DNA from: a virus
Lineage: Duplodnaviria > Heunggongvirae > Uroviricota > Caudoviricetes
IMG/VR virus record: IMGVR_UViG_2693429774_000014
Length of the DNA stretch: 29,365 bases
Direction: 5' to 3' (one strand)
Within the stretch, counting starts at the first letter, position 1. Each line of letters starts with the position of its first letter. Both the position numbers and the translations under genes were made by a program. The notes beneath the pieces are model-generated. The model was given only the letters and a program-made list of their open reading frames with translations, was not told the origin of the DNA and did no database searches. Below, piece by piece: positions 1-24,249 of this stretch.

Positions 1-1026
1 TTACTTGGAATATTTTCTTGGAATATTTTCAGGTAACGGGACATCAAGTGTCGGTGAAACTTTAACCTTCCTGTCATAGATTAGCACTTGCCCCTCGGTT
101 TTGTGACCAGAGAAAAGTTGCTTATCCCGACTGCTTCCTTCATAGTCTGAAATTCCTTTCGCCTTCAGATCATGAAAGGTGAAGTCGGTTAAAATACCTG
201 AAATTTTGCCTGCGCGATTTCTTGCTTCTACCCACATTTCGTTAAAGCCTTTGTACATATATCGGTTGCCGTATTGATTGCTGATTACATAGGCGGATGT
301 TGGTAACTGTTTTGCTTTTTCGATCGCCGCCTGTAATCGTGGACTCCATGCTTTTATCTGTTTTTTTCCTGTTTTCCCTTGCTGGATAAAGATCCCGTCG
401 TTTCCAATCTGCTCCCATTTCAGCGATAACACATCGGAAACCCTCGCTGCACACAGATAGGCAATTTCCATTGCGATAAAAACAGGAAGAGGTGCAACGC
501 TTAATACTGCCTGGTATTCTTTGTCGGTTACATATCGTTCGCGGTTTTTGGCCTTGAATTTACTTACACCTGCACATGGGTTACCCTTCACGTACCCTCG
601 CTCATACCCCCAACTGTAAACGCGGGACATACTGCTTTTTTCATGGTTGGCTTGCGTTTTACTCTGCTCCCCTCTCTTGTCCATGTATCGACGGATGTGT
701 TCTGGTTTTATGGAATCTGCCGGCACCTTACCGAATACGGCAAGCAACTTTTTTTGATGTTGCAGATAATCTTTTTGTGTTCTTGGACTGAGGTCACTGT
801 AATAGGCGCTGGCGAGGAATTTTTCCCACAAGCGACCGAATGTCATTGCACGATCGCGATTATTTACAGTTTCCTCATACTTTTTCCATAAAGCAGCTAA
901 ACCATCCTTGATGGCGGTTAGTGTTACAGATTCTCTGGATGTTGGTTTCCATACATAACTATATTTATTTGGGTATACATTTGGAGGTAATTTTTCGTGT
1001 TCAGGATTTTTCCTTCGTCTTCCCAT
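1..1026 (-). CDS. int: Tyrosine recombinase, lambda-family phage integrase (341 aa); its stop codon is nt 1-3 of the window, so attL lies off-window
   Basis: N-terminus MGRRRKNPEHEKLPPNVY resembles lambda Int MGRRRSHERRDLPPNLY as I recall it; C-terminal region has HDLKAKG and GHKTEGQVLIYDR (His and catalytic Tyr context). Position at prophage end next to an xis-like gene. Confidence 0.9.
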   Translation of the reverse strand: MGRRRKNPEHEKLPPNVYPNKYSYVWKPTSRESVTLTAIKDGLAALWKKYEETVNNRDRAMTFGRLWEKFLASAYYSDLSPRTQKDYLQHQKKLLAVFGKVPADSIKPEHIRRYMDKRGEQSKTQANHEKSSMSRVYSWGYERGYVKGNPCAGVSKFKAKNRERYVTDKEYQAVLSVAPLPVFIAMEIAYLCAARVSDVLSLKWEQIGNDGIFIQQGKTGKKQIKAWSPRLQAAIEKAKQLPTSAYVISNQYGNRYMYKGFNEMWVEARNRAGKISGILTDFTFHDLKAKGISDYEGSSRDKQLFSGHKTEGQVLIYDRKVKVSPTLDVPLPENIPRKYSK

Positions 1027-1229
1027 CAGATCGCACCAAAATTCGGCTCTACCTCGCGTGGTGGTAAAGTTTTATTGCAGGTAAATAGCTCCCGGCTGAC
1101 AATCGGTTTGCCACTACGATTGGTATAGAACGGAAGCCCGTTTTCCATTAACCATTTTCGCTGGTGGCTTGCATATTTGCAGCCCGTTAATATTAGCAAT
1201 TCATCTTCGGTTAAAAATAAGCTGCTCAT
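1026..1229 (-). CDS. Excisionase-like small DNA-binding protein (67 aa), immediately upstream of int
   Basis: 67-aa ORF whose stop overlaps the int start by 1 nt. Small basic protein in the canonical xis position. Sequence is not lambda Xis-like, so the family call is by position and size. Confidence 0.55.
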   Translation of the reverse strand: MSSLFLTEDELLILTGCKYASHQRKWLMENGLPFYTNRSGKPIVSRELFTCNKTLPPREVEPNFGAI

Positions 1230-1287
1230 AGCTATATCTCATAACCGCCGCTAACTATATACGGTTAGCGGCAATTAGGGTTGAACA

Positions 1288-3759
1288 TTAAAAATCAGCC
1301 TGACTCGGGATCAGTTTTTGCCAGATAGCTGAAACGTATTTTGCCTGGTAACGGGCGTCATCAAGTGCATTATGGCGCTCACCTTCGAATGGAATAGCCG
1401 TTCTGGCATCGAAGTCTATGGCTTTCCCCAGCTCAACGATTGTGCGTACATCGCGATCGTTGTAGTAACGCCACGGGCAGGGGATCCCCTGCCGTTCGTA
1501 TGAACGGCGCAAAATCGTGTTGTCGAAGTTGGCTCCATTTCCCCAGACATGAACAAAAAATTCACCGGAGTTTTCGTCGATAAATTCCCGCAATTGTAAC
1601 AGTGCATCATCTAACGGGATTTCATCGGCCATAATGGCAGATTGCGCTTCGCGTGATTGTTTAAGCCACCATTTAATGGTGTCCCGATCAATGACTCCGC
1701 CAGCAGTTTCCAGATCGATAGTCTTACTAAATTCCGGTCCCATATCTCCGGTTTGCGGATCGAAAAATATTGCACCTATTGAGATAATCGGGGCATCGGG
1801 ATTTTTTCCCATGGTTTCAAGGTCGATCATCAGATGAATCCCCGCTCTGCTGGTGGATGTGAGATTATGATGACCGTTCGCCTTAATTAAGGGATCTGAC
1901 GCCTCGCCAGTTTCACTATCGCTGGCATGATGCTGATTGCCGCCAGTGTTCTCCTTGTGCTGATGCGCAGTGCCTTCCATTTCCTCCGGATCATTTTCCT
2001 GAACTTCAGGCTGATTCTCTCCATCGAATATTTCCTGGTATGTTGCGTCACCCATCACCGCACCACAATCAGGGCAGTTGCCGCCACCGCTCTGACCGCA
2101 GGCGGTGCAGATCTTTTCCGGTTCCTGTTGCACTACTGGTTCAGGTTGTTTCGTTTCTGGCTCGTTTTGTAACGCATTTGGGCTGTTTTGTTCCGCTTTT
2201 TGGTAGTTCCGTTCCGATTCATGCTGGTTCTGGTTCACAGAATCGCGAGTCTGGATCCCCTTGACCCATTTCGGATCATTAGGGGCGCTAATCCCCTCAA
2301 CAAATTCACCACGCGATACAGCAAGTAACTTATCGGCGTCAGGCTGGCTGATATTGGCTGCCTGCATAATTTTGTTTACTTCGTCAGCGGTAACTTTTAC
2401 CGGCCCTGGTTGTGCGGTCGTGTCAGATGCACCAGTATTTTGTTGTGAACCTGAGTATGTACCGTTTTTGCGGGCGAAATATTCTTCTTTCGTGATTTCA
2501 GTAGCCCCAGCAGACAGCGCCTTATCCAGACCAGAAAGTTTGTTTGCGCGACCGTATTTTTCGCCATCCTTGTCGGTGAAGAGGAAGTAGAACGGCCCCT
2601 CACGCTCTACAGATGGTTCAGCTTCCGGCGCGGTTTCATTTTTTGGGATATCAGATACCTCAGTTTCCACTGCATCAGTTTGTGTTTCTGATGACTGGAG
2701 AACATCAACAGTGCCCAGGTCTGTTTCTTCATTCTCAAACACGCCCTTTGTCGTCAGGTATTCGCAGATATATTTGTTCAGTGCTACGGGATCTTTGTGA
2801 ATGTCGATCGGACGTTCACGGACAAGGCCAAAAATAGTCTGGCGGTCGTAGCGAAGGGCATCAGGCTGTTTGCGCATTGATGCCGAGATACGCTTCCAGT
2901 CTTCGCGGCCGTTGTCGATAACTTCATTTTTTGCCCAGCGATGGATGCTGCCGTCAATGTTTCCGGCATCCACATCACCAGGCCAGAGAGCGTAGGCCAG
3001 TTCGTCATCCAGTGTTTTCCATGTCTGCTTGTATTCGCGATGAATGGCAGCAATGACCGGGCTGATTTTTCCTGTTGAATTTTCAGTGTACTGTTGATTG
3101 GCTCTGGCGCGGGCGAGATCAACAACAGACGTGTATTTTCCGGTTTCCTTGCGTTCACCTTCGCGACGTTTTTTCCAGATGCGCATCTCTGCCTGAATTT
3201 CGGGCCATTTAGCACCAGGAATACATTTATGCTTAACCCACCCAATGGCGTGCAACTTAAGCTCCGGATACATGGCGTTAACTTCTGGCATTTTCATCAA
3301 CGCTTCAACGATATGTCCGTCGAATGTTGCCATGTCTTCCTGCAACAATTCCTGTGCGCTAATAACCATATCAACGGTGATGTTTTCACATGTGTCGAAC
3401 TTAACCATGACAGCGTTCTGTACTTCAGGGGCCAGCTTGTCAAAAGTGACGTTCATCGGATCGGATTCAGTCTCAACCGGGACAAAAGAAGCAGACTCCT
3501 CATCCCAGCGGTTTTCCTGCATATATTCAGCATCCCATGAATCGAGGGCAGGGCGGGGTATGCCAGGTTTATCCTCGCAGACAATAAATTTATAAGCGCA
3601 GTCCTGAGCAGCCGGATAATGTTCCAGGAATTGCCAGTGAAATTTTGCGCGGGCGCGACATTCATCACCGGCTTCAATGGCAGTGGCTACAGCGACTGCA
3701 CCTTCTTCCTTTATTGCCTGTTCGTCCGGAATGGCGGCGCAAATAAAGACTTTACTCAT
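1288..3759 (-). CDS. Large prophage exonuclease (823 aa): RecE-like (exodeoxyribonuclease VIII-like) N-terminal and middle region, C-terminal DnaQ-like DEDDh 3'-5' exonuclease domain; intact counterpart of K-12 Qin ydfE
   Basis: Segment DADKLLAVSRGEFVEGISAPNDPKWVKGIQTRD matches the Rac RecE segment I recall. C-terminal 180 aa carries DEDDh motifs (MIDLETMG; HNALDDARYQAKY). GAGGT ribosome-binding site 9 nt upstream of ATG. Confidence 0.85.
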   Translation of the reverse strand: MSKVFICAAIPDEQAIKEEGAVAVATAIEAGDECRARAKFHWQFLEHYPAAQDCAYKFIVCEDKPGIPRPALDSWDAEYMQENRWDEESASFVPVETESDPMNVTFDKLAPEVQNAVMVKFDTCENITVDMVISAQELLQEDMATFDGHIVEALMKMPEVNAMYPELKLHAIGWVKHKCIPGAKWPEIQAEMRIWKKRREGERKETGKYTSVVDLARARANQQYTENSTGKISPVIAAIHREYKQTWKTLDDELAYALWPGDVDAGNIDGSIHRWAKNEVIDNGREDWKRISASMRKQPDALRYDRQTIFGLVRERPIDIHKDPVALNKYICEYLTTKGVFENEETDLGTVDVLQSSETQTDAVETEVSDIPKNETAPEAEPSVEREGPFYFLFTDKDGEKYGRANKLSGLDKALSAGATEITKEEYFARKNGTYSGSQQNTGASDTTAQPGPVKVTADEVNKIMQAANISQPDADKLLAVSRGEFVEGISAPNDPKWVKGIQTRDSVNQNQHESERNYQKAEQNSPNALQNEPETKQPEPVVQQEPEKICTACGQSGGGNCPDCGAVMGDATYQEIFDGENQPEVQENDPEEMEGTAHQHKENTGGNQHHASDSETGEASDPLIKANGHHNLTSTSRAGIHLMIDLETMGKNPDAPIISIGAIFFDPQTGDMGPEFSKTIDLETAGGVIDRDTIKWWLKQSREAQSAIMADEIPLDDALLQLREFIDENSGEFFVHVWGNGANFDNTILRRSYERQGIPCPWRYYNDRDVRTIVELGKAIDFDARTAIPFEGERHNALDDARYQAKYVSAIWQKLIPSQADF

Positions 3760-3851
3760 TTTGTTTTACCTCATTACAGATTTAAGGGTGAACAAATCCC
3801 TGCCATTGCTGGCATATAAGAATGAAACCGGATATTTATTACGGAACTGTT

Positions 3852-4043
3852 TTAAAGACCTGCCGGGATTTCGTTATTATCCTGGTGAATAACTTTATCG
3901 ACCGGGTAACAGTTACCGGGAATTTTCTGTTCGGTTGCTGCAGTCACACACTCCTGCATTGTCCTGTGAACACTGACTGCAATATCAACTGGCTCTCCGG
4001 AAACAAGAAAAACTGTCAGAACAAGTGCAAATGCTGTATTCAT
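3852..4043 (-). CDS. ydfD: YdfD-like small membrane lysis protein (63 aa); ORF could extend to an upstream ATG at 4097 (81 aa)
   Basis: MNTAFALVLTVFLVSGEPVD... has an N-terminal hydrophobic segment. ATGA start/stop overlap with dicB. Same size and position as K-12 Qin ydfD. Confidence 0.6.
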   Translation of the reverse strand: MNTAFALVLTVFLVSGEPVDIAVSVHRTMQECVTAATEQKIPGNCYPVDKVIHQDNNEIPAGL

Positions 4044-4228
4044 TGCCAGCATCCTTTTTGTATCGGACGTAAACGGGCCAGCATTGAAAGAATGCATATT
4101 TTATTTAATAACTCCCGTTCGTGTTTTCTCTTGTTAATGGCATCTTCAGTAAATACAGGGTTACTGATAGTGACACCAATTTCAAAACAACCTTCAGACG
4201 TATTAACGTTTGGTAATAACGTTTCCAT
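4040..4228 (-). CDS. dicB: Cell division inhibitor DicB (62 aa)
   Basis: METLLPNVNTSEGCFEIGVTISNPVFTEDAINKRKHERELLNKICILSMLARLRPIQKGCWQ is 62 aa, matching my recollection of K-12 DicB. GAGGA ribosome-binding site upstream. Immediately downstream of the DicF sRNA, as in Qin. Confidence 0.8.
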   Translation of the reverse strand: METLLPNVNTSEGCFEIGVTISNPVFTEDAINKRKHERELLNKICILSMLARLRPIQKGCWQ

Positions 4229-4402
4229 TATCGCGTCCTCAACAATGAATTTTGTGATGCGATGCCTGGTGCCTCCAGGTGACGTTAACCAGTTAACAAT
4301 TAACGCCGGATACAGAGAATCCACCCATAACACTGTTTTTGGTTTTAACTGTTCCGCGTGCGCTCAGCCGCATTCACCACATCACAAAATTCACTTTAAA
4401 AA

Positions 4403-4455
4403 GGGCGGCAGAGCAGTCACGGAGTAAAACTGATACCGCCAAACGTCACCAGAAA
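4403..4455 (-). ncRNA. dicF: DicF small regulatory RNA (53 nt processed form; intrinsic-terminator U-tract extends to about 4398)
   Basis: Minus-strand sequence UUUCUGGUGACGUUUGGCGGUAUCAGUUUUACUCCGUGACUGCUCUGCCGCCC followed by UUUUU matches DicF as I recall it. Lies between ydfC and dicB as in the K-12 dicB operon. Confidence 0.7.
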
Positions 4456-4796
4456 ATTGATAACAGAGGGCGTTGCAGCGGGGTTGTCACTTAAGCGTAT
4501 GGTCAACCTGACAACCCGGTGTCCTCAACGGGGGAAGGAATAACCCCGCCATACTTACCGCCGCGCCATTTCGCGGATTGCCACAACCGGAAGCGCACGG
4601 TCGACGAAAATTTAACGACAGGCTATCTATGAACCAGCTACCTCGCCGTGCGCTTTCGCGTTATGGTCTGACTTTTCAGGGAAATATCCTTTCAGTAAAC
4701 TGTCAATGCCGGATGCTCACCCGTGTCCGGCGCACGCACTCCACCTCACCCGTGGAGAACTCCTTAATTACTAACCTTAGCTTTGTTGATTAGCTA

Positions 4797-5015
4797 CTAA
4801 CGCGGGTATGTAATCATTCTGGCAATGCTTAATGCCGCTGCTTTTTCCAGATTGGTGATATCCTGCTCCAGAGCGGACAGATTTTCAGCCTGCTTAGCTC
4901 TGGCTTCATTGGCCCATTTCAGATCCTGCGCTGCATTAATTTTCTGGTGCATCCACTCATAAAGTTCATCATCGGTATAGTCTGGCGCGATGATGACGGG
5001 TTCTCGTTTCTGCAT
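4797..5015 (-). CDS. ydfC: YdfC-like protein of the dicB operon (72 aa)
   Basis: 72-aa ORF with GAGGAA ribosome-binding site 6 nt upstream. Correct position and size relative to ydfA/ydfB/dicF. Confidence 0.6.
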   Translation of the reverse strand: MQKREPVIIAPDYTDDELYEWMHQKINAAQDLKWANEARAKQAENLSALEQDITNLEKAAALSIARMITYPR

Positions 5016-5041
5016 ACTGATTCCTCGCGGTGCTGTTTCGC

Positions 5042-5173
5042 TTATCAGCCGTTAGATTTTGCCGAACTGGAAAGCGCCTGTTTAAATTCGTTGAAGCTGA
5101 GAGCTTCTTCGCCTTCGGCAAGACCTTCGAAGTATTCTTCGTAAGCCTTTTCCATGATTGTGTCGAAATCCAT
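5042..5173 (-). CDS. ydfB: YdfB-like small acidic protein (43 aa; not in the supplied ORF track because it is under 60 aa)
   Basis: ORF MDFDTIMEKAYEEYFEGLAEGEEALSFNEFKQALSSSAKSNG found by reading the minus strand. AGGTGA ribosome-binding site; start is 2 nt from the ydfA stop. K-12 ydfB is about 42 aa. Confidence 0.45.
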
Positions 5174-5174
5174 A

Positions 5175-5330
5175 TCACTCACCTGAGTTTCTTTCCAGCC
5201 AGCGACGGGCACCATTTTCGGTTTTAAACGTTTTGCTTTTGGTATACGTCATCGCGGTGAACGTACCGTCCTGGTTGGGAAACACGCCGTACACCAGAGA
5301 TTCGTTGTTGCCAAGATCGATAGTATCCAT
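5175..5330 (-). CDS. ydfA: YdfA-like protein (51 aa), first gene of the dicB operon
   Basis: MDTIDLGNNESLVYGVFPNQDGTFTAMTYTKSKTFKTENGARRWLERNSGE. GAGG ribosome-binding site upstream of the internal ATG at 5328-5330. The track's longer 69-aa form lacks a ribosome-binding site. Confidence 0.5.
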   Translation of the reverse strand: MDTIDLGNNESLVYGVFPNQDGTFTAMTYTKSKTFKTENGARRWLERNSGE

Positions 5331-5410
5331 GCTGACCTCATTTCCCCTTAACGCTGGGGTAGCGGAACTGTTTGCTGAGAACACCGTGCGGTGTGTTGAT
5401 GCAAATAAGA

Positions 5411-5424
5411 TTAGCCATGGCTAA
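5411..5424. promoter_or_regulatory. Palindromic operator TTAGCCATGGCTAA in the dicB-operon promoter region; related half-site copy TGTTATGGCTAACA at about 5448-5461
   Basis: Perfect 14-bp palindrome read directly. Shares the half-site TTAG..CTAA with the dicA-dicC intergenic palindrome. Located upstream of ydfA between the divergent dicA and dicB-operon genes. Confidence 0.55.
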
Positions 5425-5496
5425 CATATAGGTCAAGTGATTTTGTATGTTATGGCTAACATGATTGATGTGGTAAAAGATAACTCATTGATGATG

Positions 5497-5904
5497 TTAT
5501 CTTTTATTTGTCCGCTGACGGGCTTTTAGTAATTCTTCAAAGAGTTTATTGAAGTTTTTTACTCGAGCTCGCATTTCGGCGAGCTGGGTATCCTGTTCTG
5601 ATTCTGGCAGTGCATTAAACAGCTCAAGGAGCTCTAGTTCTTTGGGGGATAAGGCAACTGGCTTCTCAACAGGTGGTGTTGGTTGCTTGTCTTCATCGCC
5701 AAATAGAATCCATGTTGGTGAGCATTGCAATACTTTGCTGAGGGCAAAAAGGTTCTTCCCTGTAGGTTCACTATCATCCCGTTCCCATTGTGATACAGAC
5801 ACATGGGAGATTTTCAGGGCTTTAGCAAGAGACCTTTGGGTGTGTTTGAGGTTTTTCCGACGATACCTAATGCGTTCGCCGATAGTTAAATTTTTTGTTT
5901 CCAT
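5497..5904 (-). CDS. dicA: DicA, HTH (XRE-family) repressor of the dicB operon (135 aa)
   Basis: METKNLTIGERIRYRRKNLKHTQRSLAKALKISHVSVSQWERDDSEPTGKNL... has an N-terminal HTH. 135 aa as in K-12 DicA. Divergent from dicC. Confidence 0.9.
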   Translation of the reverse strand: METKNLTIGERIRYRRKNLKHTQRSLAKALKISHVSVSQWERDDSEPTGKNLFALSKVLQCSPTWILFGDEDKQPTPPVEKPVALSPKELELLELFNALPESEQDTQLAEMRARVKNFNKLFEELLKARQRTNKR

Positions 5905-5953
5905 AGTTAGCTAATGCTAAATCGTATTGACTATGTTTTTGTTAACATCTATT

Positions 5954-5973
5954 TTGTTAGTCATGACTAACAA
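5954..5973. promoter_or_regulatory. 20-bp perfect palindrome TTGTTAGTCATGACTAACAA in the dicA-dicC intergenic region (operator)
   Basis: Self-complementary sequence read directly; sits between the divergent dicA and dicC starts. Confidence 0.6.
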
Positions 5974-5987
5974 TAAAGGTGTTTTAA

Positions 5988-6218
5988 ATGCTTAAAACTG
6001 ACGCTCTTTTGTATTTCGGTTCAAAAACAAAACTTGCACAAGCAGCAGGTATTCGTTTGGCTTCGCTTTATAGCTGGAAAGGGGATTTAGTTCCCGAAGG
6101 TCGCGCGATGCGTCTACAGGAGGCATCTGGCGGGGAGCTTCAGTATGATCCCAAAGTTTATGATGAATATCGTAAGACGAAGCGGGCGGGGCGGTTGAAC
6201 AATGAAAATCACTCCTGA
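5988..6218 (+). CDS. dicC: DicC, Cro-like regulator (76 aa)
   Basis: 76-aa ORF divergent from dicA with AAAGGTG ribosome-binding site. Sequence MLKTDALLYFGSKTKLAQAAGIRLASLYSWKGD... matches my recollection of DicC. Confidence 0.85.
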   Translation: MLKTDALLYFGSKTKLAQAAGIRLASLYSWKGDLVPEGRAMRLQEASGGELQYDPKVYDEYRKTKRAGRLNNENHS

Positions 6219-6723
6219 ACAGGCTCGTGAGGCTCTGGATGCCTGGATATGTCGACCAGGAATGACACAGGAGCAGGCGACGATATTAATCACTGAAGCA
6301 TTCTGGGCTTTGAAAGAGCGCCCGAACATCGATGTTCAGCGTGTCACAGATGAAGGTGGCGCGGTTGATCAGCGAGCGCTTGGCGTTAATCGAGTGAAGA
6401 TATTCGAACGCTGGAAGGCTATCGACACCAGGGATAAGCGTGAAAAGTTCACGGCGCTAGTGCCTGCGATTATGGAGGCTATCCGGATTAGTGATTTCAG
6501 GTTGTATCGTGAGATCAGTGATGGAAAAAGTATTACGTACATGATCGCCGGGTTAAATAAAGAATATGGCGATGTGGTGGAATCCGGACTGCTTTTTGCA
6601 GATCCTGCCGTTGTAGATCGTGAAACTGACGAACTTATAGAAAAAGCAATTGCTTTCAAGCTTGCGCATCGACAGCAATACCAACAAAAAGCTGGATGGA
6701 ATTATGAGTCTTCTTTTTGCTGA
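6202..6723 (+). CDS. Hypothetical early-region protein (173 aa), in the cII/YdaT position between the cro-like gene and the replication gene
   Basis: ORF overlaps the dicC stop and the downstream replication gene start (operon coupling). No motif I can assign. Confidence 0.55.
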   Translation: MKITPEQAREALDAWICRPGMTQEQATILITEAFWALKERPNIDVQRVTDEGGAVDQRALGVNRVKIFERWKAIDTRDKREKFTALVPAIMEAIRISDFRLYREISDGKSITYMIAGLNKEYGDVVESGLLFADPAVVDRETDELIEKAIAFKLAHRQQYQQKAGWNYESSFC

Positions 6724-7669
6724 ACGCCCACTGGTTATAAACACGCAGCTGGCAATGAAAATTGGCTTAAACGAAGCCATTGTTTTGCAACAACTGCACT
6801 ACTGGTTGAGAGATACCAACTCCGGCATGGAATGTGATGGTGTTCGCTGGATTTATAACACAACGGAACAATGGCTGGAACAGTTCCCATTCTGGTCAGA
6901 GTCAACGTTAAAGCGCGCGTTTGCAAGTCTGAAAACGCTGGGGCTTTTGCGTTGTGAAAAGCTCAATAAATCAAAGCGCGATATGACCAATTTCTACACG
7001 ATCAACTACGGGAGCGAGCTTTTAGATGGTGGCAAATTGAGCGAATCCATCGGTTTAAAATGCGCCGCTCCATCAGGTCAAAATGACACGATGGAAGAGG
7101 TCAAAATGAAACGCTCCATTGGTTCAAAACGACTCAATGTCATCGGGTCAAAATGGCCTGATGATCTTACAGAGAATACAACAGAGATTACTACAGAGAA
7201 TAAAAAGACTTCTCGTCCGGAAGCTTCGCAACCGGACCCGCAGACGGTTGAACAGGATTTTTTAACCCGACACCCTGACGCGGTTGTGTTCAGTGCGAAA
7301 AAACGCCAGTGGGGCAGCCAGGAAGATTTGGCGTGTGCGCAGTGGATCTGGGGGCGAATCGTGAGTCTTTACGAGCAGGCCGCCAGCGATGATGGCGAGA
7401 TTTCGCGACCGAAAGAACCCAACTGGACCGCATGGGCCAACGACGTGCGCACAATGCGGATGCTGGATGGCAGAACTCACAGACAAATTTGTGAAATGTT
7501 TGGTCGGGTGCAGCGGGATCCATTCTGGGTAAAAAATATCATGAGTCCGTCAAAGCTTCGCGAAAAATGGGATGAACTGGTTATCCGCCTGGGGCGTTCG
7601 TCTGTACAGCGTTGTGTGAATCATATTTCTGAGCCGGATACCGAAATTCCGCCGGGCTTCAGGGGGTAA
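6704..7669 (+). CDS. Phage replication protein with DnaT-like (primosomal protein I) C-terminal domain; start taken at the internal ATG (MSLLFAERP), ORF could begin at 6650
   Basis: C-terminus ...VNHISEPDTEIPPGFRG closely matches the E. coli DnaT C-terminus (...SEPDSQIPPGFRG) as I recall it. The N-terminal half is of a type I associate with phage replication organisers. Confidence 0.8.
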   Translation: MSLLFAERPLVINTQLAMKIGLNEAIVLQQLHYWLRDTNSGMECDGVRWIYNTTEQWLEQFPFWSESTLKRAFASLKTLGLLRCEKLNKSKRDMTNFYTINYGSELLDGGKLSESIGLKCAAPSGQNDTMEEVKMKRSIGSKRLNVIGSKWPDDLTENTTEITTENKKTSRPEASQPDPQTVEQDFLTRHPDAVVFSAKKRQWGSQEDLACAQWIWGRIVSLYEQAASDDGEISRPKEPNWTAWANDVRTMRMLDGRTHRQICEMFGRVQRDPFWVKNIMSPSKLREKWDELVIRLGRSSVQRCVNHISEPDTEIPPGFRG

Positions 7670-7709
7670 GTGTTAATTTCTGGTCATGAGGTAATTTTCA
7701 GGAGGGCTT

Positions 7710-8132
7710 GTGGCAAAAGTTTTTACACAAGAAGAGCGGGAAAAAATTAAAGGGCAGGTTGTTGAACTCGTACGCCGGAGTGGGCGTGAGACGTTACGGC
7801 AACTGGAAGTCAAGACAGGTGCGACAAGATATCTGATGAGCGTTCTCGCAAGAGAGCTGGTTGCCAGCGGCGATGTATACAACTCTGGTTACGGGTTATT
7901 CCCGTCTGAACAGGCGCGTAAGGACTGGCAAAATGCCCGTAAAAAGCTCTCAAGGGCAAAGCTGAAGGAACCATCTGCGGTTGATCCGGACCTTATCTGG
8001 TCATTACCTGACGGAGAAATACGTCGCTACGACAGGCGTCAGAACATAATCTGTCGCGAGTGCCGGAAGAGTGAAGTTATGCAGCGCATACTAGCATTCT
8101 ATCAGGGAAATGCTCGATATTTATTGAAGTGA
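7710..8132 (+). CDS. Hypothetical phage protein (140 aa, GTG start), basic
   Basis: Strong AGGAGGG ribosome-binding site 7 nt upstream of GTG; basic, Cys-containing C-terminal half (RECRKSEVMQR). No confident family assignment. Confidence 0.6.
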   Translation: MAKVFTQEEREKIKGQVVELVRRSGRETLRQLEVKTGATRYLMSVLARELVASGDVYNSGYGLFPSEQARKDWQNARKKLSRAKLKEPSAVDPDLIWSLPDGEIRRYDRRQNIICRECRKSEVMQRILAFYQGNARYLLK

Positions 8133-8384
8133 TGAGATTAAAGTTTATTAGTTCAGATATTGATTGGCTCTTTTGTGGAGTAGGGTAGAGTTAGTGTGTT
8201 TGTCTGCTTGGTGCCAGCAGCGGATATGTTTAACAACAGAAAGCATTCAGCATGGTTAGTGGATTTGCAAAGTGGATTAGGATTTGAGAAACTTTGATGA
8301 AGTTGTAAAGCTTGTTTCTATAAAAATAGAAATTTAACTAATAGTTAAACACACCTCCAGCTTCATTGAAAAGGATTATTAGCT

Positions 8385-16333: not shown

Positions 16334-18184
16334 ATGTCGATTAAACATTATGATGTTGTCAGGGCGGCGTCGCCGTCAGACCTTGCGGAAAAGCTGACAC
16401 ACAAACTGAAAGAGGGCTGGCAGCCATACGGCGGACCGGTTGCCATTACGCCGTACACACTGATGCAGGCGGTGGCTATTGAAGGAGAGCCACAGGTCGG
16501 CCCTTCATCTGAGCCGGATTGGTACTACGTCATCGTACTGGCCGGGCAGTCCAATGCCATGGCTTACGGTGAAGGGCTTCCGCTGCCGGATTCATACGAT
16601 GCTCCGGATCCGCGCATTAAACAGCTGGCGCGCCGCAGTACAGTGACGCCGGGCGGGGCTGCCTGCAGATATAACGATATTATTCCGGCTGACCACTGTC
16701 TGCATGATGTGCAGGATATGAGTACGCTGAATCATCCGAGGGCTGACCTGAGCAAAGGGCAGTACGGCTGTGTCGGCCAGGGTTTACATATTGCCAAAAA
16801 ACTGCTCCCGTATATCCCGAATAACGCGGGGATCCTGCTGGTACCATGCTGTCGTGGTGGTTCGGCATTTACCCAGGGCGCGGAGGGGACATTCAGCGAG
16901 TCCACGGGGGCCAGTCAGGATTCGGCACGCTGGGGGGTGGGCAAGCCGTTATATCAGGATCTGATTTCCCGCACAAAAGCGGCATTGCAGAAAAATCCCA
17001 AAAACGTTCTGCTGGCCGTCTGCTGGATGCAGGGTGAGTTTGACATGAGCGCCGCCACCCACGCACAGCAACCTGCGCTGTTTACAGCCATGCTGACACA
17101 GTTTCGTGCTGACCTCTCCGTGTTTAACGCGCAGTGCCATGGTGGCAGCGCTGCAGATGTGCCGTGGATTTGTGGTGACACGACGTATTACTGGAAAAAT
17201 ACATACGCTACCCAATACGACACCGTGTACGGCGGGTATAAAAACAGGGAGAGTGAGGGCGTTTATTTTGTGCCCTTCATGACAGACGGTAACGGCGTCA
17301 ATACCGCCACTAACGCGCCGGCAGAAGATCCGGATATTCCGGCATCAGGATATTACGGTGCGGCATCGAGAACGAATGGAAACCAGGTATCATCAAACCG
17401 CCCGACACATTTCAGTTCATGGGCGCGCAGGAGCATTATTCCGGATCGTCTGGCAACCGCTATTCTGAACGCAGCCGGGCGCACCTCAGCCTTCATCAGT
17501 GGTAAGGCACCGGAAATCAAACCCTCGCCCGGCGGCAACACGCCATCGGGTCCGTCTGCAGATACGTCCGTTCGCACAATCTCCCTGCTGCCGGCAGCCG
17601 GAGAGGCTGCTGCGCAGGGCTGGAGCATTAAGGATGGCGGAATTCAGTTGTCAGATGGTGTATTTAAGATCACCAAGCAGAGCAATAAAACCTGGTCCCT
17701 GACGCATCCGGTGGATGACGCAATTACCCTGCTGACACAGGGCGGCAGACTGACCTGTAAGTTCCGCCTGTCAGGCGCACTGACCAACAATCAGTTCGGG
17801 CTGGGGATTTATCTGTATACGGATGCTCCCGTTCCTGATGGTGTGGCGATGACGGGTACCGGTAATCCGTTCCTGATGTCGTACTTCACTCAGACCACTG
17901 ACGGCAGAGTGAATCTGATGCATCACAGGAAAGCCGGAAACACGAAGCTGGGGGAGTTCGGCGGTTACGGTAACGACTGGCAGACGCTGGAGCTGGTGTT
18001 CACCGCCGGCAGTGCCACGGTTACTCCGAAACTGAATGGAGTGGCTGGCCCGGCATTCCAGGTTATAAAAGACGGTCTGACACTGGGACTGAATGCGCTG
18101 ACGCTGACGGATGTTACAAAAAATGCAGCGTATGGCGTTGAGATAGAAAGTCTGGTGCTGGAGATAAATGCACCGGCAGCATAA
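16334..18184 (+). CDS. nanS: Prophage NanS-p-like sialate O-acetylesterase (616 aa; SGNH/SASA esterase core with extra N- and C-terminal domains)
   Basis: Block VIVLAGQSNAMAYGEG (GQSN-type esterase motif). Size and position (between the Q/tRNA region and the holin) match the NanS-p genes of Stx-type lambdoid phages. GGGAGA ribosome-binding site. Confidence 0.8.
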   Translation: MSIKHYDVVRAASPSDLAEKLTHKLKEGWQPYGGPVAITPYTLMQAVAIEGEPQVGPSSEPDWYYVIVLAGQSNAMAYGEGLPLPDSYDAPDPRIKQLARRSTVTPGGAACRYNDIIPADHCLHDVQDMSTLNHPRADLSKGQYGCVGQGLHIAKKLLPYIPNNAGILLVPCCRGGSAFTQGAEGTFSESTGASQDSARWGVGKPLYQDLISRTKAALQKNPKNVLLAVCWMQGEFDMSAATHAQQPALFTAMLTQFRADLSVFNAQCHGGSAADVPWICGDTTYYWKNTYATQYDTVYGGYKNRESEGVYFVPFMTDGNGVNTATNAPAEDPDIPASGYYGAASRTNGNQVSSNRPTHFSSWARRSIIPDRLATAILNAAGRTSAFISGKAPEIKPSPGGNTPSGPSADTSVRTISLLPAAGEAAAQGWSIKDGGIQLSDGVFKITKQSNKTWSLTHPVDDAITLLTQGGRLTCKFRLSGALTNNQFGLGIYLYTDAPVPDGVAMTGTGNPFLMSYFTQTTDGRVNLMHHRKAGNTKLGEFGGYGNDWQTLELVFTAGSATVTPKLNGVAGPAFQVIKDGLTLGLNALTLTDVTKNAAYGVEIESLVLEINAPAA

Positions 18185-18185
18185 T

Positions 18186-18470
18186 AAAAAAAGAGCCAGC
18201 GACTGACCTGAAAGAAGACGCTGGCTAAAAGGCCTTATATGTTTGTAGAGACTTATTTTTCACAGACAGCAATGATGCCTGTCAATATATTATCAATATG
18301 CGGATTGTTTCAGTTACAGATGCTTTATTAAGGAAAAAAACAGCCAGCACTGACTTTCGGTGGAGAGGTGCTGGCTCAGAAGGATAGTTGGATTTCACAT
18401 GATACTTATGCCTGGCGGTATATTTTCTGACAGACAGTGACGGGTGTTGTCAAGATATTGTGTCATTTAT
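18186..18470. repeat. Imperfect tandem direct repeat (two units of about 115-135 bp, each with a GCCAGC...GCTGGC inverted repeat) in the nanS-to-holin intergenic region
   Basis: Unit 1 (about 18186-18300) and unit 2 (about 18334-18470) align by eye: AAAAAAAGAGCCAGCGACTGAC...GCTGGCT...CAGACAGCAATGATGCCTGTCAATATATT versus AAAAAAACAGCCAGCACTGACT...GCTGGCT...CAGACAGTGACGGGTGTTGTCAAGATATT. Confidence 0.6.
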
Positions 18471-18551
18471 AACCTGAATCAGGGGAGGCCGGAATGTTAT
18501 CTGGCATTTTTAGCAGAGCCTGAATGCCATAATCACGGCTCCCGGAGTTGG

Positions 18552-18590
18552 CCGTCAGTGGGTGACACTGGCGGTTTTTTTGTTTTTCTT
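18552..18590 (+). terminator. Strong rho-independent terminator about 40 bp upstream of the holin gene
   Basis: 9-bp stem CCGTCAGTG/CACTGGCGG (one G-U pair), loop GGTGA, then TTTTTTTTGTTTTT. Confidence 0.65.
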
Positions 18591-18631
18591 TACTTTCATT
18601 TTCTGTCGGCGGTGACGGAGACATACATCAG

Positions 18632-18838
18632 ATGGAAAAAATCACAACGGGTGTGTCATACACCACGTCAGCGGTGGGGACGGGATACTGGTTACTGCAG
18701 CTGCTGGACAAAGTCTCTCCGTCCCAGTGGGTGGCAATCGGTGTGCTGGGGAGTCTGCTGTTTGGCCTGCTGACGTATCTGACTAACCTTTATTTCAAGA
18801 TTAAAGAAGATAAGCGTAAGGTGGCGCGGGGAGAGTAG
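18632..18838 (+). CDS. S: Phage-21-type holin (class II holin/pinholin family, 68 aa)
   Basis: [68 protein letters not shown] closely resembles S21 as I recall it; two TM segments and a basic C-terminus. Confidence 0.85.
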
Positions 18839-19093
18839 TCGATGAATAAACAATACGAACTGGTTGTAAAATGAATATTTCTAACTGAAAAAACGTTCCA
18901 TGAGGTAAGAAAAGGTCACAGGCAATCAATAACAGGACGTGATGAAAGACCCTTGCATTTGTGCGCTTTCTCTTTAGATAGCAGCAGATACTGAAAATCT
19001 GAGTTGTCGGGGAGTCAGGGATACAGCTGTGCAAGAGTTGGTCATTGTGATTCCATTGAAATCCTGTATGCCATGAAGGGCAGGATTTTATGG

Positions 19094-19408
19094 CTACCTG
19101 AGCTTTGGTGATAGTAAGTTGAAAATTCGCATTTTTTGCTGACATGCGTAACGAGAATCCCATAAGCAGGGAGGACTTAATTCTTCATTAACCCATGCGT
19201 TGATATTATGTTTCAGCCGTTGAAGCATCAGCGGTGTTAATGTTGTGGTAATAATATCCAGCGTTTTATGTGAGATCTTACCGTAAGGGTCTGCAAGAAT
19301 GCTGCTTGTTGCTTCGTTATTATCTGCCATCAGAAGAAGTAACTCTGATTTAACGTTTTCTGTCATTAGTTGTAAAAATCTTCTGCGCAAACTTTCTTTA
19401 CTGTTCAT
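19094..19408 (-). CDS. YdfR-like hypothetical protein (104 aa) encoded antisense within an AT-rich insert between holin and endolysin
   Basis: ORF on the opposite strand in an AT-rich segment (about 18840-19500). K-12 Qin has a roughly 103-aa ydfR between essQ and rrrQ. Ribosome-binding site is weak. Confidence 0.45.
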   Translation of the reverse strand: MNSKESLRRRFLQLMTENVKSELLLLMADNNEATSSILADPYGKISHKTLDIITTTLTPLMLQRLKHNINAWVNEELSPPCLWDSRYACQQKMRIFNLLSPKLR

Positions 19409-19525
19409 TTATATGGCTTCATTTGTTGTAATCTGCTGCGTCTCAAGGGATATGTTTATGAGAGCGACCATGAGTGTTGGATTATATACCTAACATATCA
19501 AGGGATTAGAAATCGATAAATCCCC

Positions 19526-20059
19526 ATGAACGAAAAAATAAAATACGGCCTGTCGGCTGCCGTTCTGGCGCTGATTGGTGCAGGTGCTTCTGCGCCTGAA
19601 ATCCTCGACCAGTTTCTGGATGAAAAGGAAGGTAACCACACCACGGCATACCGTGATGGTGCGGGGATCTGGACCATCTGCCGTGGTGCCATTCTGGTGG
19701 ATGGTAAGCCTGTTATTCCTGGCATGAAGCTGTCAAAGGAAAAATGCGACCGGGTTAATGCCATCGAACGTGACAAGGCGCTGGCATGGGTGGAGAAAAA
19801 CATCCGGGTGCCGCTGACCGAACCCCAGAAAGCGGGGATCGCGTCATTCTGTCCGTACAACATTGGCCCCGGTAAGTGCTTCCCGTCGACGTTTTATAAA
19901 CGAATTAATGCAGGCGATCGAAAAGGTGCCTGTGAGGCGATTCGCTGGTGGATTAAGGACGGTGGCAGAGACTGCCGTATCCGTTCAAATAATTGCTACG
20001 GTCAGGTCTCACGGCGTGACCAGGAGAGCGCGCTGGCGTGCTGGGACATCGACAGATAG
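19526..20059 (+). CDS. R: Endolysin, T4-lysozyme-family (GH24) with N-terminal signal-anchor (SAR-type, as in phage 21 R)
   Basis: N-terminal hydrophobic YGLSAAVLALIGAGASAP, then catalytic-triad spacing E-x8-D-x5-T (LDEKEGNHTTAYRDGAGIWT). Pairs with a pinholin-type holin. Confidence 0.85.
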   Translation: MNEKIKYGLSAAVLALIGAGASAPEILDQFLDEKEGNHTTAYRDGAGIWTICRGAILVDGKPVIPGMKLSKEKCDRVNAIERDKALAWVEKNIRVPLTEPQKAGIASFCPYNIGPGKCFPSTFYKRINAGDRKGACEAIRWWIKDGGRDCRIRSNNCYGQVSRRDQESALACWDIDR

Positions 20060-20279
20060 CAGAATATTTTCCTGAAAAATGACGTTGGCCAACGCGGGTG
20101 GATAACACGAAATCCTGAAAACTGGTAAAACCTAAGTGAATAAAAGTAAAAACCCCGTTTGTTGGCAGCAAGCGGGGTTTTGTGTTTTCTGACCTTGAGT
20201 AAGGCAAGGGAGAAATTATGGGTAGGGAGGTACTTTCCCTGTGAGGAAGTATAAAAGATTCTTTCTGAGGTTGTCCATT

Positions 20280-20393
20280 ATGAAAGGCATTGAAGTGGAG
20301 ACGCCAGCCAGTCTGGATTTAACAAGAGCGGCAGCTTTTGCCATTCGTATTGTGGCCATTGCTGTTCTGGTCTGGGCAATCCGTTGGTGGTGA
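20280..20393 (+). CDS. Possible small hydrophobic protein (37 aa) between endolysin and Rz
   Basis: MKGIEVETPASLDLTRAAAFAIRIVAIAVLVWAIRWW. GAGG about 9 nt upstream of ATG; stop is 1 nt before the Rz ATG. Not in the track (under 60 aa). Confidence 0.3.
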   Translation: MKGIEVETPASLDLTRAAAFAIRIVAIAVLVWAIRWW

Positions 20394-20394
20394 T

Positions 20395-20862
20395 ATGAAC
20401 CGTGTTCTGTGCGTGGTTATCATTGTCCTGCTGGTGGCCTGTGGTGCGCTTAGTCTGGGGCTGAATCATTACCGTGATCACGCCATCATCTACAAAGAGC
20501 AGCGCGATAAAAAAGCCAGTGAGCTGGAGCTGGCGAACGCGACAATTACTGATATGCAGATACGCCAGCGTGATGTCGCTGCACTTGATGCCAGATACTC
20601 GAGGGAATTAGCCGATGCGAGAGCTGAAAATGAAACTCTGCGTGCTGATGTTGCCGCTGGTCGTAAGCGCCTGCGGATCAACGCCACCTGCTCCGGTACC
20701 GTGCGTGAAGCCACCGGCACCTCCGGCGTGGATAATGCAACCGGCCCCCGACTGGCAGACACCGCTGAACGGGATTATTTCATCCTCAGAGAACGGCTGA
20801 TGGCAATGCAGAAGCAACTGGAAGGAGCACAGGAATATATCCGTACCCAGTGTATACCGTGA
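20395..20862 (+). CDS. Rz: Rz-like i-spanin (155 aa from MNRVL; track ORF starts at 20338)
   Basis: N-terminal TM (VLCVVIIVLLVACGALSL) then a charged coiled-coil-like periplasmic domain. Contains an embedded +1-frame lipoprotein ORF (Rz1). Confidence 0.7.
   Translation: MNRVLCVVIIVLLVACGALSLGLNHYRDHAIIYKEQRDKKASELELANATITDMQIRQRDVAALDARYSRELADARAENETLRADVAAGRKRLRINATCSGTVREATGTSGVDNATGPRLADTAERDYFILRERLMAMQKQLEGAQEYIRTQCIP
20630..20800 (+). CDS. Rz1: Rz1-like o-spanin lipoprotein (56 aa) embedded in Rz in the +1 frame
   Basis: MKLCVLMLPLVVSACGSTPPAPVPCVKPPAPPAW...: lipobox-like VSAC and a proline-rich mature region. GAGAG ribosome-binding site. Confidence 0.7.
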   Translation: MKLCVLMLPLVVSACGSTPPAPVPCVKPPAPPAWIMQPAPDWQTPLNGIISSSENG

Positions 20863-21327
20863 TGTTTTGTTATGAAGGTGTTACTGGTAACGTTAAGGTA
20901 ATTTAACAAAGAGTCAGTTCCGGACTTTATAGTGTGCTCAGTTCATGGCCAAAAACGATTTCTGTGATAAATATTTTGAATATTATTTACAGGTAAATGG
21001 AGTGGGGCGCATGGATAGAAATATTACAATAGAGTATGAAGTATATGCCCGTATTGTATGGGCAGAGAAGGCAAAAACACGGTAATTCCGTGTGTTGCCA
21101 TGATACCTGATTGGCAGAATAGTTGTTTGGTTTTGAGTATATAGTCAGCGTTTTTTGTTCAGTAATTGCCCCCTCAAAAAATAATAAAATAAGGTGATTA
21201 TTTTTGTTTATTATTTAGTTTTTTTTGTGTGTTATTTTATTGTTTTTGCGTGGTTTGTTTTTTATTGTTATTTCATTAAGGGAAGGTAAATTCAGGATGG
21301 CAGTCTGTAGATAATCGGAGGTCACTT

Positions 21328-21642
21328 ATGCTACATGATCACGTGGCAGAATGTCTGGAGAAAAAAGGACTGTACCGGAGAGCAGCTGAACGATGGGCAA
21401 AAGTGATGGTACAGCTAAGTGATGACCAGAAAAGAAAAGTGGCGGCACAGAAACGAGCAGAGTGTTTGCGTAAGGCGCGCCGGACTCCGGTTTCACCGGT
21501 GAACCTGACCGAAATAAAACAAGCGGTCAACAGACTACATTCTGAGTTGGGAATGGGATTTGAAGAGCGGCGGGTATTCCGACGATATAAAGGGACAGGA
21601 GAACAGAATACGTCCGGAAACGCGCGGTCAAAAAAATGCTAA
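21328..21642 (+). CDS. PerC-family (Pch-like) transcriptional regulator candidate (104 aa) behind a long AT-rich leader
   Basis: N-terminal LEKKGLYRRAAERW resembles the PerC-family signature I recall (G-aromatic-RRA..RW). Perfect GGAGG ribosome-binding site. About 460 bp of AT-rich, T-tract-rich upstream DNA. Confidence 0.55.
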   Translation: MLHDHVAECLEKKGLYRRAAERWAKVMVQLSDDQKRKVAAQKRAECLRKARRTPVSPVNLTEIKQAVNRLHSELGMGFEERRVFRRYKGTGEQNTSGNARSKKC

Positions 21643-21723
21643 AAAATATCTGAGAGAGTTATTGCCTGTTACCATAAGAAAAAGCGACTTTAGTGGTCGC
21701 TTTTTGTGTCATATATAAGTCGT

Positions 21724-21948
21724 TTAAGTAAACCTGTCTGAACAGGTGCTCTGGTCGTGTTTGTCTTTGTTGGGTACAAATTGAGAATATTTTTCATTAA
21801 TTAATCTTCTTCTGCAGGCTTCAATAACCCACGCTGAAAAATTACCTGAACCTTTCAGGTCAAGAGCGATGTTAATTTGTTCAATTATCTGGTTTGGAAA
21901 TCGGATGTTGCGGGTTGTTGTTCTGCGGGTTCTGTTCTTTGATGACAT
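21724..21948 (-). CDS. Small lambda right-end ORF homolog (YlcI/DUF3950-like, 74 aa)
   Basis: MSSKNRTRRTTTRNIRFPNQIIEQINIALDLKGSGNFSAWVIEACRRRL resembles the small ORF near the right end of lambda as I recall it; lies just cos-proximal, as in lambda. Confidence 0.5.
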   Translation of the reverse strand: MSSKNRTRRTTTRNIRFPNQIIEQINIALDLKGSGNFSAWVIEACRRRLINEKYSQFVPNKDKHDQSTCSDRFT

Positions 21949-22155
21949 AATGTTGCCCCGTATTCAGTGTTGCTGATTTGTATTATCTGAAGTTGCTTTT
22001 ACGCTAATTTGATGCATATCAATTAATACGATACCTGCGTAATAATTGATTATTTCTCGTGGTTTGATGGCGTACACACATGTCGTGATAAACCTCATGT
22101 AGATGATAATTATTATCATTTTCGTGGGTCCTTTCCGGCGATCCGACAGGTTACG

Positions 22156-22167
22156 GGGCGGCGACCT
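22156..22167 (+). other. cosN cohesive-end sequence GGGCGGCGACCT (lambda-type cos), with flanking sequence resembling the lambda genome ends
   Basis: GGGCGGCGACCTCGCGGGTTTTCGCTATTTATGAAAATTTTCCGG matches the first about 45 nt of the lambda genome as I recall it, and the upstream ...CGATCCGACAGGTTACG resembles the lambda right end. Homology to lambda stops after TTTTCCGG. Confidence 0.75.
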
Positions 22168-22350
22168 CGCGGGTTTTCGCTATTTATGAAAATTTTCCGG
22201 GATCCATGTCCGGTTTCTCTTCAAGTTAACTATATGAAAAATATAAAAACAGGTCTTCTGTGAACCGGACATGAACAAAAAACAGACATGTAAACCGGAC
22301 ATGACCGGTTTTGTTGTGATTGTGAGGTGAGAGTTTTTGCGAGGTGAGGA

Positions 22351-24192: not shown

Positions 24193-24249
24193 CACGTTAT
24201 CAGGCCACCGCGGTGGCCTGACTGATTTCTGAATGAAAGGAACTGATTT

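Follow-up and report, generated by a model that had tools for sequence, protein, structure and literature searches.

The subject of this study is a 29,365-nucleotide (nt) stretch of DNA from a virus of the Caudoviricetes (IMG/VR record IMGVR_UViG_2693429774_000014), hereinafter the window, and within it the region at 3852-5973. Judged from its sequence, this region is a copy of the well-studied dicBF cell-division-inhibitor operon, carried in a lambda-like prophage and placed under DicA/DicC control. The genes of the operon follow one another on the minus strand in the order ydfA-ydfB-ydfC-DicF-dicB-ydfD, with dicA upstream and dicC divergent from it. In terms of layout, dicA is followed by a 166-bp intergenic region, ydfA, ydfB, ydfC, an untranslated stretch of 341 nt, the small RNA (sRNA) DicF, a spacer of 174 nt, dicB and ydfD; further downstream on the same strand lie genes for an exonuclease, an excisionase and an integrase, in that order. 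We hold it very probable that the region constitutes the leftward early (PL-type) operon and the immunity switch of a Qin-like lambdoid prophage. Two elements merit particular attention: a pair of operator-like sites at the putative dicB promoter and a structured RNA between DicF and dicB.

Gene content and collinearity with the K-12 Qin prophage

Alignment of the window to the Qin region of Escherichia coli K-12 MG1655 (b1569-b1576) extends over positions 2993-6481 with 97.9% identity, a single gap opening in 3489 columns and no rearrangement. Per-gene comparison shows that all seven proteins have the K-12 length and differ from their counterparts by 0-7 substitutions each. YdfA (DUF1391, 51 amino acids (aa), 5175-5330, minus strand; PF07151, 98.5 bits) is identical to the K-12 protein, YdfB (42 aa, 5045-5173, minus; phrog_2061) differs by S28N and YdfC (72 aa, 4797-5015, minus; phrog_1744) by R23H. 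The latter two lack a Pfam or NCBIfam family; their assignment comes from the PHROG families and the K-12 match. The cell-division inhibitor DicB (62 aa, 4040-4228, minus) is recovered well above the cut-offs of both NF049927 (132.7 bits against 100) and PF05358 (127.4 against 27), with seven substitutions relative to K-12 that fall mainly toward the C-terminus. The last gene, ydfD (63 aa, 3852-4043, minus), encodes a DUF1482 lysis protein (PF07358, 88 bits) with four substitutions; its counterpart is labelled 'lysis protein' in the K-12 record. The DicF sRNA (53 nt, 4403-4455, minus), which carries its own intrinsic terminator stem and U-tract, matches the K-12 dicF at 53 of 53 positions, and the Rfam model RF00039 calls it at 4403-4454 on the minus strand over the full model (1-52), with 76.7 bits against a gathering score of 48 (E=1.7e-15). 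A terminator scan additionally detected a weak hairpin 3' of ydfD (3801-3814, minus), which would coincide with the expected 3' end of the 1,608-nt K-12 transcript if transcription starts near 5400.

A preliminary description of this DNA had claimed a complete dicB operon with DicF at 4403-4455, small open reading frames (ORFs) conserved with ydfABC, dicB and ydfD, and the regulators DicA and DicC. Each of these features is indeed found in its place: the ORFs are collinear with and nearly identical to those of Qin, the covariance model calls DicF above its gathering score and both regulators exceed their NCBIfam cut-offs. Beyond gene order and gene lengths, the window shares with K-12 Qin identical DicF, YdfA and DicC, a Rem homologue and hokD further to the right, and an operator Oc that differs at one base. 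The differences comprise the DicA substitution G43D, the perfect palindromy of Oc in the window, the seven changed residues of DicB, an integrase of another family and the state of the flanking genes: in K-12 ydfE is cut by IS2E and ydfX is a fragment, whereas the window has a whole exonuclease gene and a whole YdaT-family gene in the corresponding places. The left end of the alignment at window position 2993 is the boundary of the IS2E insertion; given that the alignment stops exactly there, the K-12 ydfE corresponds to an N-terminal remnant of the 823-aa exonuclease. The right end falls inside the YdaT-family gene, of which K-12 ydfX is the fragment.

The DicA/DicC switch, Oc and two putative operators

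DicA (135 aa, 5497-5904, minus; NF007257, 235.6 bits against 101) is a CI-like repressor that differs from the K-12 protein solely by G43D, and DicC (76 aa, 5988-6218, plus; NF007282, 159.5 bits against 130) is a Cro-like regulator identical to that of K-12. Between them a motif search located the operator Oc, TTGTTAGTCATGACTAACAA, a perfect 20-bp palindrome at 5954-5973, which agrees with the published K-12 Oc, TTGTTAGTCATAACTAACAA, at 19 of 20 bases; the one base that differs is central, and its change renders the palindrome perfect. The K-12 Oc is bound by DicA in vivo, and a single A-to-C change abolishes this binding (PMC3441716). In the window Oc overlaps the -10 and start region of a dicC promoter candidate from a promoter scan (TTGACT, 17 nt, TATTTT; 5927-5955, plus).

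Aspartate at position 43 of DicA (codon 43 at 5776-5778) is the state in the window and in the other DicA-type sequences that we inspected, which makes the G43 of K-12 the odd allele. Likewise, the G at 5964 in the centre of Oc, present in both the window and a relative (L005), makes Oc a perfect palindrome, and it is the imperfect Oc of K-12 that stands apart. Both differences may be relevant to the temperature sensitivity with which K-12 DicA is reported to bind Oc (PMC3441716).

On the other side of dicA, a putative dicB promoter was read from the sequence of the dicA-ydfA intergenic region (5408-5436, minus), with a -35 element TTGACC at 5431-5436, a 17-nt spacer and a -10 element TAATCT at 5408-5413. 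Transcription would start near 5400, and such a start would account for the published RNase III site at +813/814, a DicF precursor of ~185 nt and the 1,608-nt ydfA-ydfD transcript (PMC10448788). Two operator-like sites accompany this promoter, each with two mismatches to TGTTAG-N6-CTAACA: TGTTAGCCATAACATACA (operon strand) at 5444-5461 and TGTTAGCCATGGCTAATC (operon strand) at 5409-5426. Read along the operon strand, the order is TGTTAGCCATAACATACA (5461-5444) just upstream of the -35 element (5436-5431), followed by TGTTAGCCATGGCTAATC (5426-5409), which occupies the promoter spacer and whose right half forms the -10 element (5413-5408).

The preliminary description had listed three palindromes sharing a half-site TTAG..CTAA. 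The three motifs do lie at 5954-5973, 5411-5424 and 5448-5461, the latter two in the dicA-ydfA intergenic region; the third, TGTTATGGCTAACA, is not its own reverse complement. The shared half-site also stands, albeit better written as TGTTAG...CTAACA in an 18-bp frame, and the 20-bp site among the three is the already published Oc. Simulated 29-kb windows show how such motifs are to be judged: a perfect palindrome of at least 14 bp occurs in 253 of 300 and one of 20 bp in 10 of 300, and hence a 14-bp palindrome alone is unremarkable while a 20-bp one is significant. Searching instead for sites with at most two mismatches to TGTTAG-N6-CTAACA recovers four in the window against 0.9 expected, and three of the four are situated in the intergenic regions flanking dicA.

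It could be argued that the motifs near the dicB promoter are chance palindromes and that Oc alone functions as a DicA operator. This is suggested by the frequency of perfect 14-bp palindromes in simulation and by the third motif being no palindrome at all. Furthermore, DicA failed to bind Om and Oa, two further sites predicted from sequence (PMC3441716), and the DicA site at dicB is still unmapped (PMC7567609). We nevertheless regard this explanation as unlikely, since both promoter-region sites share with Oc the TGTTAG half-site and the 18-bp frame, of which 0.9 are expected per window, and since the same two positions relative to the -35 and -10 elements are occupied in the relatives that we compared.

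This comparison covered the immunity regions of four relatives (K-12, L005, L006 and L007). K-12 and L005 have the same type of repressor as the window, and sites at the same three positions. The site upstream of the -35 element is TGTTAGTCATGGCAAACA in L005 and TGTTAGACTAATCTAACA in L006, and their occurrence at the matching place favours the 18-bp frame over a 14-bp 'palindrome'. The site in the promoter spacer and -10 element is matched in position in K-12, L005 and L006; the last of these has a diverged repressor and keeps the TGTTAG/CTAACA half-sites with other spacers. L007 represents a heteroimmune case: the recognition helix of its repressor reads SSISLWESDHT instead of VSVSQWERDDS, and the same three positions carry different palindromes of the TGAG-N4-CTCA type (TGAG-N4-CT(A/C)A at the spacer/-10 site). 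Across the four relatives the -35 hexamer and the spacing of the dicB promoter are conserved, and the transcribed leader downstream of the -10 element is invariant in 5 of 5 (the window and the four relatives). As the L007 sites switch while the leader does not, operators and repressor appear to vary as a unit, with the promoter marking the end of the immunity module. That the palindrome switches with the recognition helix supports the binding of DicA to the predicted sites at the dicB promoter and speaks against their being chance palindromes.

The leader itself (5331-5400, minus; ~70 nt) could form two small hairpins, CACC-GCAC-GGTG and CCCC-N8-GGGG, the second of which overlaps the ydfA ribosome-binding site.

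A predicted mechanism for the operon

Combining the parts, operator-like sites and RNA fold described here with published K-12 work on DicA binding to Oc, the action of Rem, RNase processing and the targets of the products, we propose the following mechanism. DicA, a short CI-like repressor without a RecA-cleavable domain, would bind 18-20-bp operators of the form TGTTAG-N6-CTAACA, and Oc over the dicC promoter, along with the two predicted sites at the dicB promoter, would keep ydfA-ydfB-ydfC-dicF-dicB-ydfD silent. DicC would take the role of Cro, and the Rem homologue could act as an antirepressor. Once repression is lifted, a single transcript would presumably arise from near 5400, from which RNase III and RNase E would excise the 53-nt DicF, whose 3' end would be set by its own terminator. 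Polycistronic transcription from the dicB promoter and processing by both RNases to the 53-nt form are established in K-12 only (PMC10448788). DicF would then pair with ftsZ and other mRNAs, whereas transcripts that read through would contain the folded spacer, possibly itself cleaved by RNase III, followed by dicB and ydfD; DicB would block division via MinC and YdfD would cause lysis.

The proposed switch resembles that of lambda in its divergent repressor/Cro pair, in operators over both early promoters and in a division inhibitor within the leftward operon; it differs in that DicA has 135 aa, lacks the RecA-cleavable domain and is controlled by an antirepressor (PMC10448788). A further difference is that ydfA, rather than N, comes first after the leftward promoter; this applies to the promoter-proximal position, the rest of the window not having been screened for an N homologue. 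The Rem homologue in question is encoded at 12076-12339 on the plus strand (tblastn with K-12 Rem, 72.7% identity over the full length, E=2.5e-36), and Rem functions as a DicA antirepressor in Qin (PMC10448788). A LexA box of the form CTGT-N8-ACAG, which would suggest SOS control of the Rem homologue as with the Gifsy antirepressors, has no match in the window. The Rem homologue follows a hok/sok locus at 11534-11858 (sok, 114 bits; HokD 98% identical to K-12).

Several points weigh against reading the region as an operon equivalent to that of K-12. DicB differs at 7 of 62 residues and DicA has D43, adjoining the recognition helix, in place of G43, so that equivalence to the K-12 proteins is an assumption; also, the operon of the window is known from sequence alone, while its expression is known from work on K-12. 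The dicB promoter escaped a generic sigma-70 scanner, which we attribute to the weak -10 element TAATCT with 3 of 6 bases matching, and we retain this putative promoter on comparative and transcript-length grounds. As for its operators, the Reg-Seq study gives the location of the DicA site at dicB as unknown (PMC7567609), and the failure of Om and Oa to bind (Yun et al., PMC3441716) indicates that DicA sites predicted from sequence can fail.

A conserved structured RNA between DicF and dicB

The 174-nt spacer between DicF and dicB (4229-4402, minus) is predicted by folding, by the Rfam model RF02076 and by covariation to be a structured RNA with an STnc100-like fold, in which a long closing helix encloses at least three hairpins. 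Its minimum free energy of -67.3 kcal/mol corresponds to z=-5.3. Against STnc100 (RF02076) it reaches 34.6 of the 47 bits required by the gathering score; the K-12 spacer scores 34.4 and the relatives 30.8-43.8. In a permissive Rfam search of 3700-6300, DicF and this sub-threshold STnc100 match are the only ones returned, and no put-, nut- or C4-type match appears.

Homologous spacers immediately precede kil/kilR in Rac-SA53, vB_EcoS-683R6 and two Stx phages, 75/02 and phiSTEC1589, and also occur upstream of terB(tciA)-tciB in the P1-like phages P7 and D6. Copies of the element lie at 19433-19642 of L002, 1501-1616 of L008, 1498-1696 of L009, 1477-1685 of L010, 1189-1378 of L011, 1202-1388 of L012, 1201-1321 of L013 and 1189-1396 of L014. 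Three of the four kil/kilR loci (all except 75/02) additionally have a DicF-like sub-threshold match (RF00039, 34-41 bits) before the spacer. We aligned eight sequences, namely seven spacers plus the canonical STnc100 copy of the window (16024-16196), and recovered 40 pairs that form four helices, 97.1% of the cells being paired. Compensatory changes are seen at 16 of the 40 pairs, as against 4.2+-1.7 in shuffled alignments (0 of 500 reach 16) and 1-3 in slid controls, and they are present in all four helices.

The closing helix extends from the U-tract of DicF to ~20 nt before the Shine-Dalgarno sequence of dicB. Given a start near 5400, the published 1,146-nt 'ydfABC-dicF' transcript would end inside the 3' arm of this helix, which would fit cleavage of the spacer helix by RNase III. 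The spacer and the canonical copy at 16024-16196 have in common the closing helix and three inner hairpins of the STnc100/PasD family. The spacer departs from that family in belonging to an early-left operon upstream of a toxin gene, in lacking a terminator of its own and in running into the dicB ribosome-binding site; STnc100 and PasD have been described in the late region beside Q and an esterase (bioRxiv 10.64898/2026.05.13.724894). The survey linking STnc100 to PasD makes no mention of DicF, dicB or kil; the 1990/1994 work of the Bouché laboratory falls outside the literature covered here. A parallel is found in the Rac-type early-left module, which likewise comprises a DicF-like RNA, an STnc100-like spacer, a small division-inhibitor gene and then an exonuclease gene; it differs in that its toxin, Kil/KilR, is named differently from DicB and its DicF-like part is too diverged for the Rfam cut-off.

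These observations raise the possibility, which we advance tentatively, that the ~165-nt spacer is a conserved RNA of the STnc100/PasD fold positioned before small toxic genes of host takeover (dicB, kil/kilR and, in P1-like phages, tciA/tciB), where it might form a gate for RNase III, parting the sRNA from the mRNA of the toxin and governing toxin output, or else yield a second sRNA. On the same tentative reading it would travel as a cassette with a DicF-like RNA in lambdoid phages and sit before toxin genes with or without that RNA.

The 254-kb record MT713136.1 (Aeromonas phage AP1) contains, at 249906-250152, 247 bp that share 97.6% identity with the DicF-spacer region of E. coli, seemingly through contamination or chimeric assembly of that record.

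The integrase-exonuclease arm and the state of the prophage

The preliminary description had contrasted intact int, xis and ydfE in this DNA with degraded copies in K-12 and had suggested a less decayed relative of Qin. The genes for the integrase, the excisionase and the exonuclease are indeed uninterrupted ORFs, and ydfE and intQ of K-12 are pseudogenes; nevertheless, the integrase is not an intact intQ. The 823-aa exonuclease (1288-3759, minus) matches phrog_2082 over its full length and has a C-terminal Rv2179c-like 3'-5' exonuclease domain (223.9 bits). The excisionase (67 aa, 1026-1229, minus) belongs to DUF4224 (PF13986, 57.1 bits; phrog_1266 'excisionase', E=4e-21). The tyrosine integrase (341 aa, 1-1026, minus; PF00589, 43.8 bits against 27.1) is of the ST64B/mEp390/ZF40 type, with 48-58% identity to the integrases of these phages. 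In contrast, its best tblastn match to the K-12 intQ region has 22% identity over 208 aa (E=1e-4), and there is no match at the DNA level.

The integrase aligns with lambda Int over the full catalytic domain, and Arg I, Lys, His, His and Tyr of the active site are aligned. The second arginine is replaced by lysine in the HxxR box (FHDLKAKG; residue ~288, window ~160-170, minus). Lysine in place of the second catalytic arginine is unusual among tyrosine recombinases. We considered whether the Arg II-to-Lys change renders the enzyme catalytically dead and rejected it as a lesion, as this lysine does not vary among the ST64B, mEp390 and ZF40 integrases and is thus a trait of the family.

PGAP flags an integrase allele of the same length as 'frameshifted' (at the extreme 3' end) in MEI003, and the C-terminal tail is variable, with forms of 341, 345, 346 and 349 aa among public sequences. 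Both the variable tail and the flag can be traced to tandem 13-bp repeats, TTGGAATATTTTC, of which two copies are located at window 5-30 and a third, partial copy lies just outside the window in MEI003. A truncated integrase was rejected: 341 aa is the commonest length in the cluster and homologues end earlier. The exact protein occurs on 820 public contigs. The repeats TTGGAATATTTTC adjoin the tRNA-Ser attachment region and could be recombinase-binding sites.

One could also view the element as K-12 Qin itself at the same chromosomal site in a less eroded form, given the 3.5-kb block of 97.9% identity and the further Qin-like segments in the window (hokD-rem-ydfU, lysis genes and one more short segment), which have 77-89% identity. 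We consider this scarcely credible: in addition to the integrase being unrelated to intQ, likeness to Qin outside the immunity and early-left block is patchy and lower, and the operon itself is found at as many as 10 places in a genome (median 2). MEI003 matches window 1-14230 with 99.96% identity, and its prophage is situated at a tRNA-Ser gene beside mtfA rather than at the Qin site (ydfJ/rspB); the window begins at the int stop codon, and the junction with the chromosome lies outside it.

The prophage in MEI003 is complete at ~48 kb and carries nleB2/nleC/nleH/nleF as cargo; comparison with it reveals extensive losses from the morphogenesis genes of the window. A segment of ~4.2 kb (25520-29743 of L004) is missing, which holds terS except for its first 12 nt, terL, the head-tail joining and portal genes and the start of the protease gene. 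A second missing segment of ~6.9 kb (15801-22716) begins where the capsid gene ends, takes in the head completion, tail tube and tape measure genes and continues to minor tail protein L; most of gene J is absent as well. The deletion junctions fall at ~22361, 25162 and 26583 of the window, the third interval being 26583-27316. What remains are an in-frame fusion of the terS start to the protease, a protease lacking the first ~20 profile positions, a major head protein that stops at profile position 302 and an I-J tail fusion. This contiguous deleted arrangement was found in none of 5426 complete genomes, and could be either a real defective derivative or an assembly problem.

Accordingly, the suggestion of a less decayed Qin stands for the left arm, which is better preserved than that of Qin, and falls for the element as a whole: with the terminase, the portal and most tail genes missing, the prophage of the window is itself defective. 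The stronger proposal, that of an 'undecayed Qin' which as a complete temperate phage could be induced, excise itself and produce virions, can point to the open int, xis and exonuclease genes, the repressor switch, open genes for an O-like replication protein, Q, lysis and part of the head and tail, and to near-identical left arms in sequenced phage records. The missing terminase, portal and tail blocks and most of J, the truncated or fused ORFs and the absence of the arrangement from all 5426 complete genomes make this highly improbable.

Other features of the window

Between the replication genes and hokD lies a block (8385-10972) that is absent from K-12 Qin, with a SMEK-domain protein (8385-9284, plus) and an S-adenosylmethionine (SAM)-dependent methyltransferase accompanied by a hypothetical protein (9599-10972, minus); it may be accessory or defence cargo. 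Following Q, three tRNA genes (Ile, Arg and Arg by the MEI003 annotation) are found at 15004-15250, and after them come a TerB-family pseudogene, a DUF3927 gene, the canonical STnc100 RNA (16024-16196, 100.8 bits) and a gene for a 616-aa SASA/NanS-type esterase (16334-18184). This tRNA-to-esterase block has the layout of Stx phages, but the annotation of the matching prophage in MEI003 shows no stx genes at this place.

A 104-aa ORF (21328-21642, plus) between the lysis and packaging genes occupies the place of a PerC-family (Pch-like) regulator in MEI003. Regulators of this family control the locus of enterocyte effacement (LEE) in attaching-effacing strains. The longest perfect palindrome in the window, TCAGGCCACCGCGGTGGCCTGA (22 bp, 24200-24221), lies between the genes for head decoration and the major capsid protein and probably represents a hairpin or terminator in the intergenic space.

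Distribution of the operon and implications

The operon has a match in 4759 of 5426 complete E. coli genomes. A 2.45-kb region of the window is 100% identical to chromosomes in which PGAP names dicA, dicC, ydfC, dicB and ydfD. All six proteins that we looked up (integrase, excisionase, exonuclease, DicA, DicB and YdfD) have exact public copies on 401 to more than 1000 contigs, with exact DicA and exact DicB each on at least 1000. Among phage records, PhiR42_1, Tritos, mEp460_ev081 and vB_EcoS-689R5 contain the operon at 96-98% identity, as do the CP-933/Sp prophages of O157:H7, and the annotation of Tritos names DicF, DicB and YdfD explicitly. vB_EcoS-689R5 shares the int, xis and exonuclease genes of the window; in some phages (689R5, 606R7, Tritos, 640R1 and 813R8) the same dicBF block stands beside another immunity, with a cI-type repressor or an ImmA/IrrE peptidase. 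Relative to the dicBF phages and prophages in the databases, the window is distinguished by its lack of packaging and tail genes.

The spread of dicBF through Qin-like and CP-933 prophages, and its presence in several copies in pathogenic strains, has been in print since 2016 (PMC5069750); a paper of 2023 reports how DicA, the antirepressor Rem, RNase III and RNase E regulate it (PMC10448788). The operon, the DicA/DicC switch, Oc, the processing of DicF and the spread in E. coli are thus all already known and the exact sequence is already annotated, so that the operon as first described from this DNA adds nothing to knowledge. Two small points may help workers on the system. Comparison with heteroimmune relatives places the still-unmapped DicA sites at the dicB promoter, putatively one upstream of the -35 element and one filling the spacer and the -10 element. 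The folded spacer, for its part, is present in K-12 too and offers a concrete candidate for the RNase III site that would uncouple DicF from dicB.

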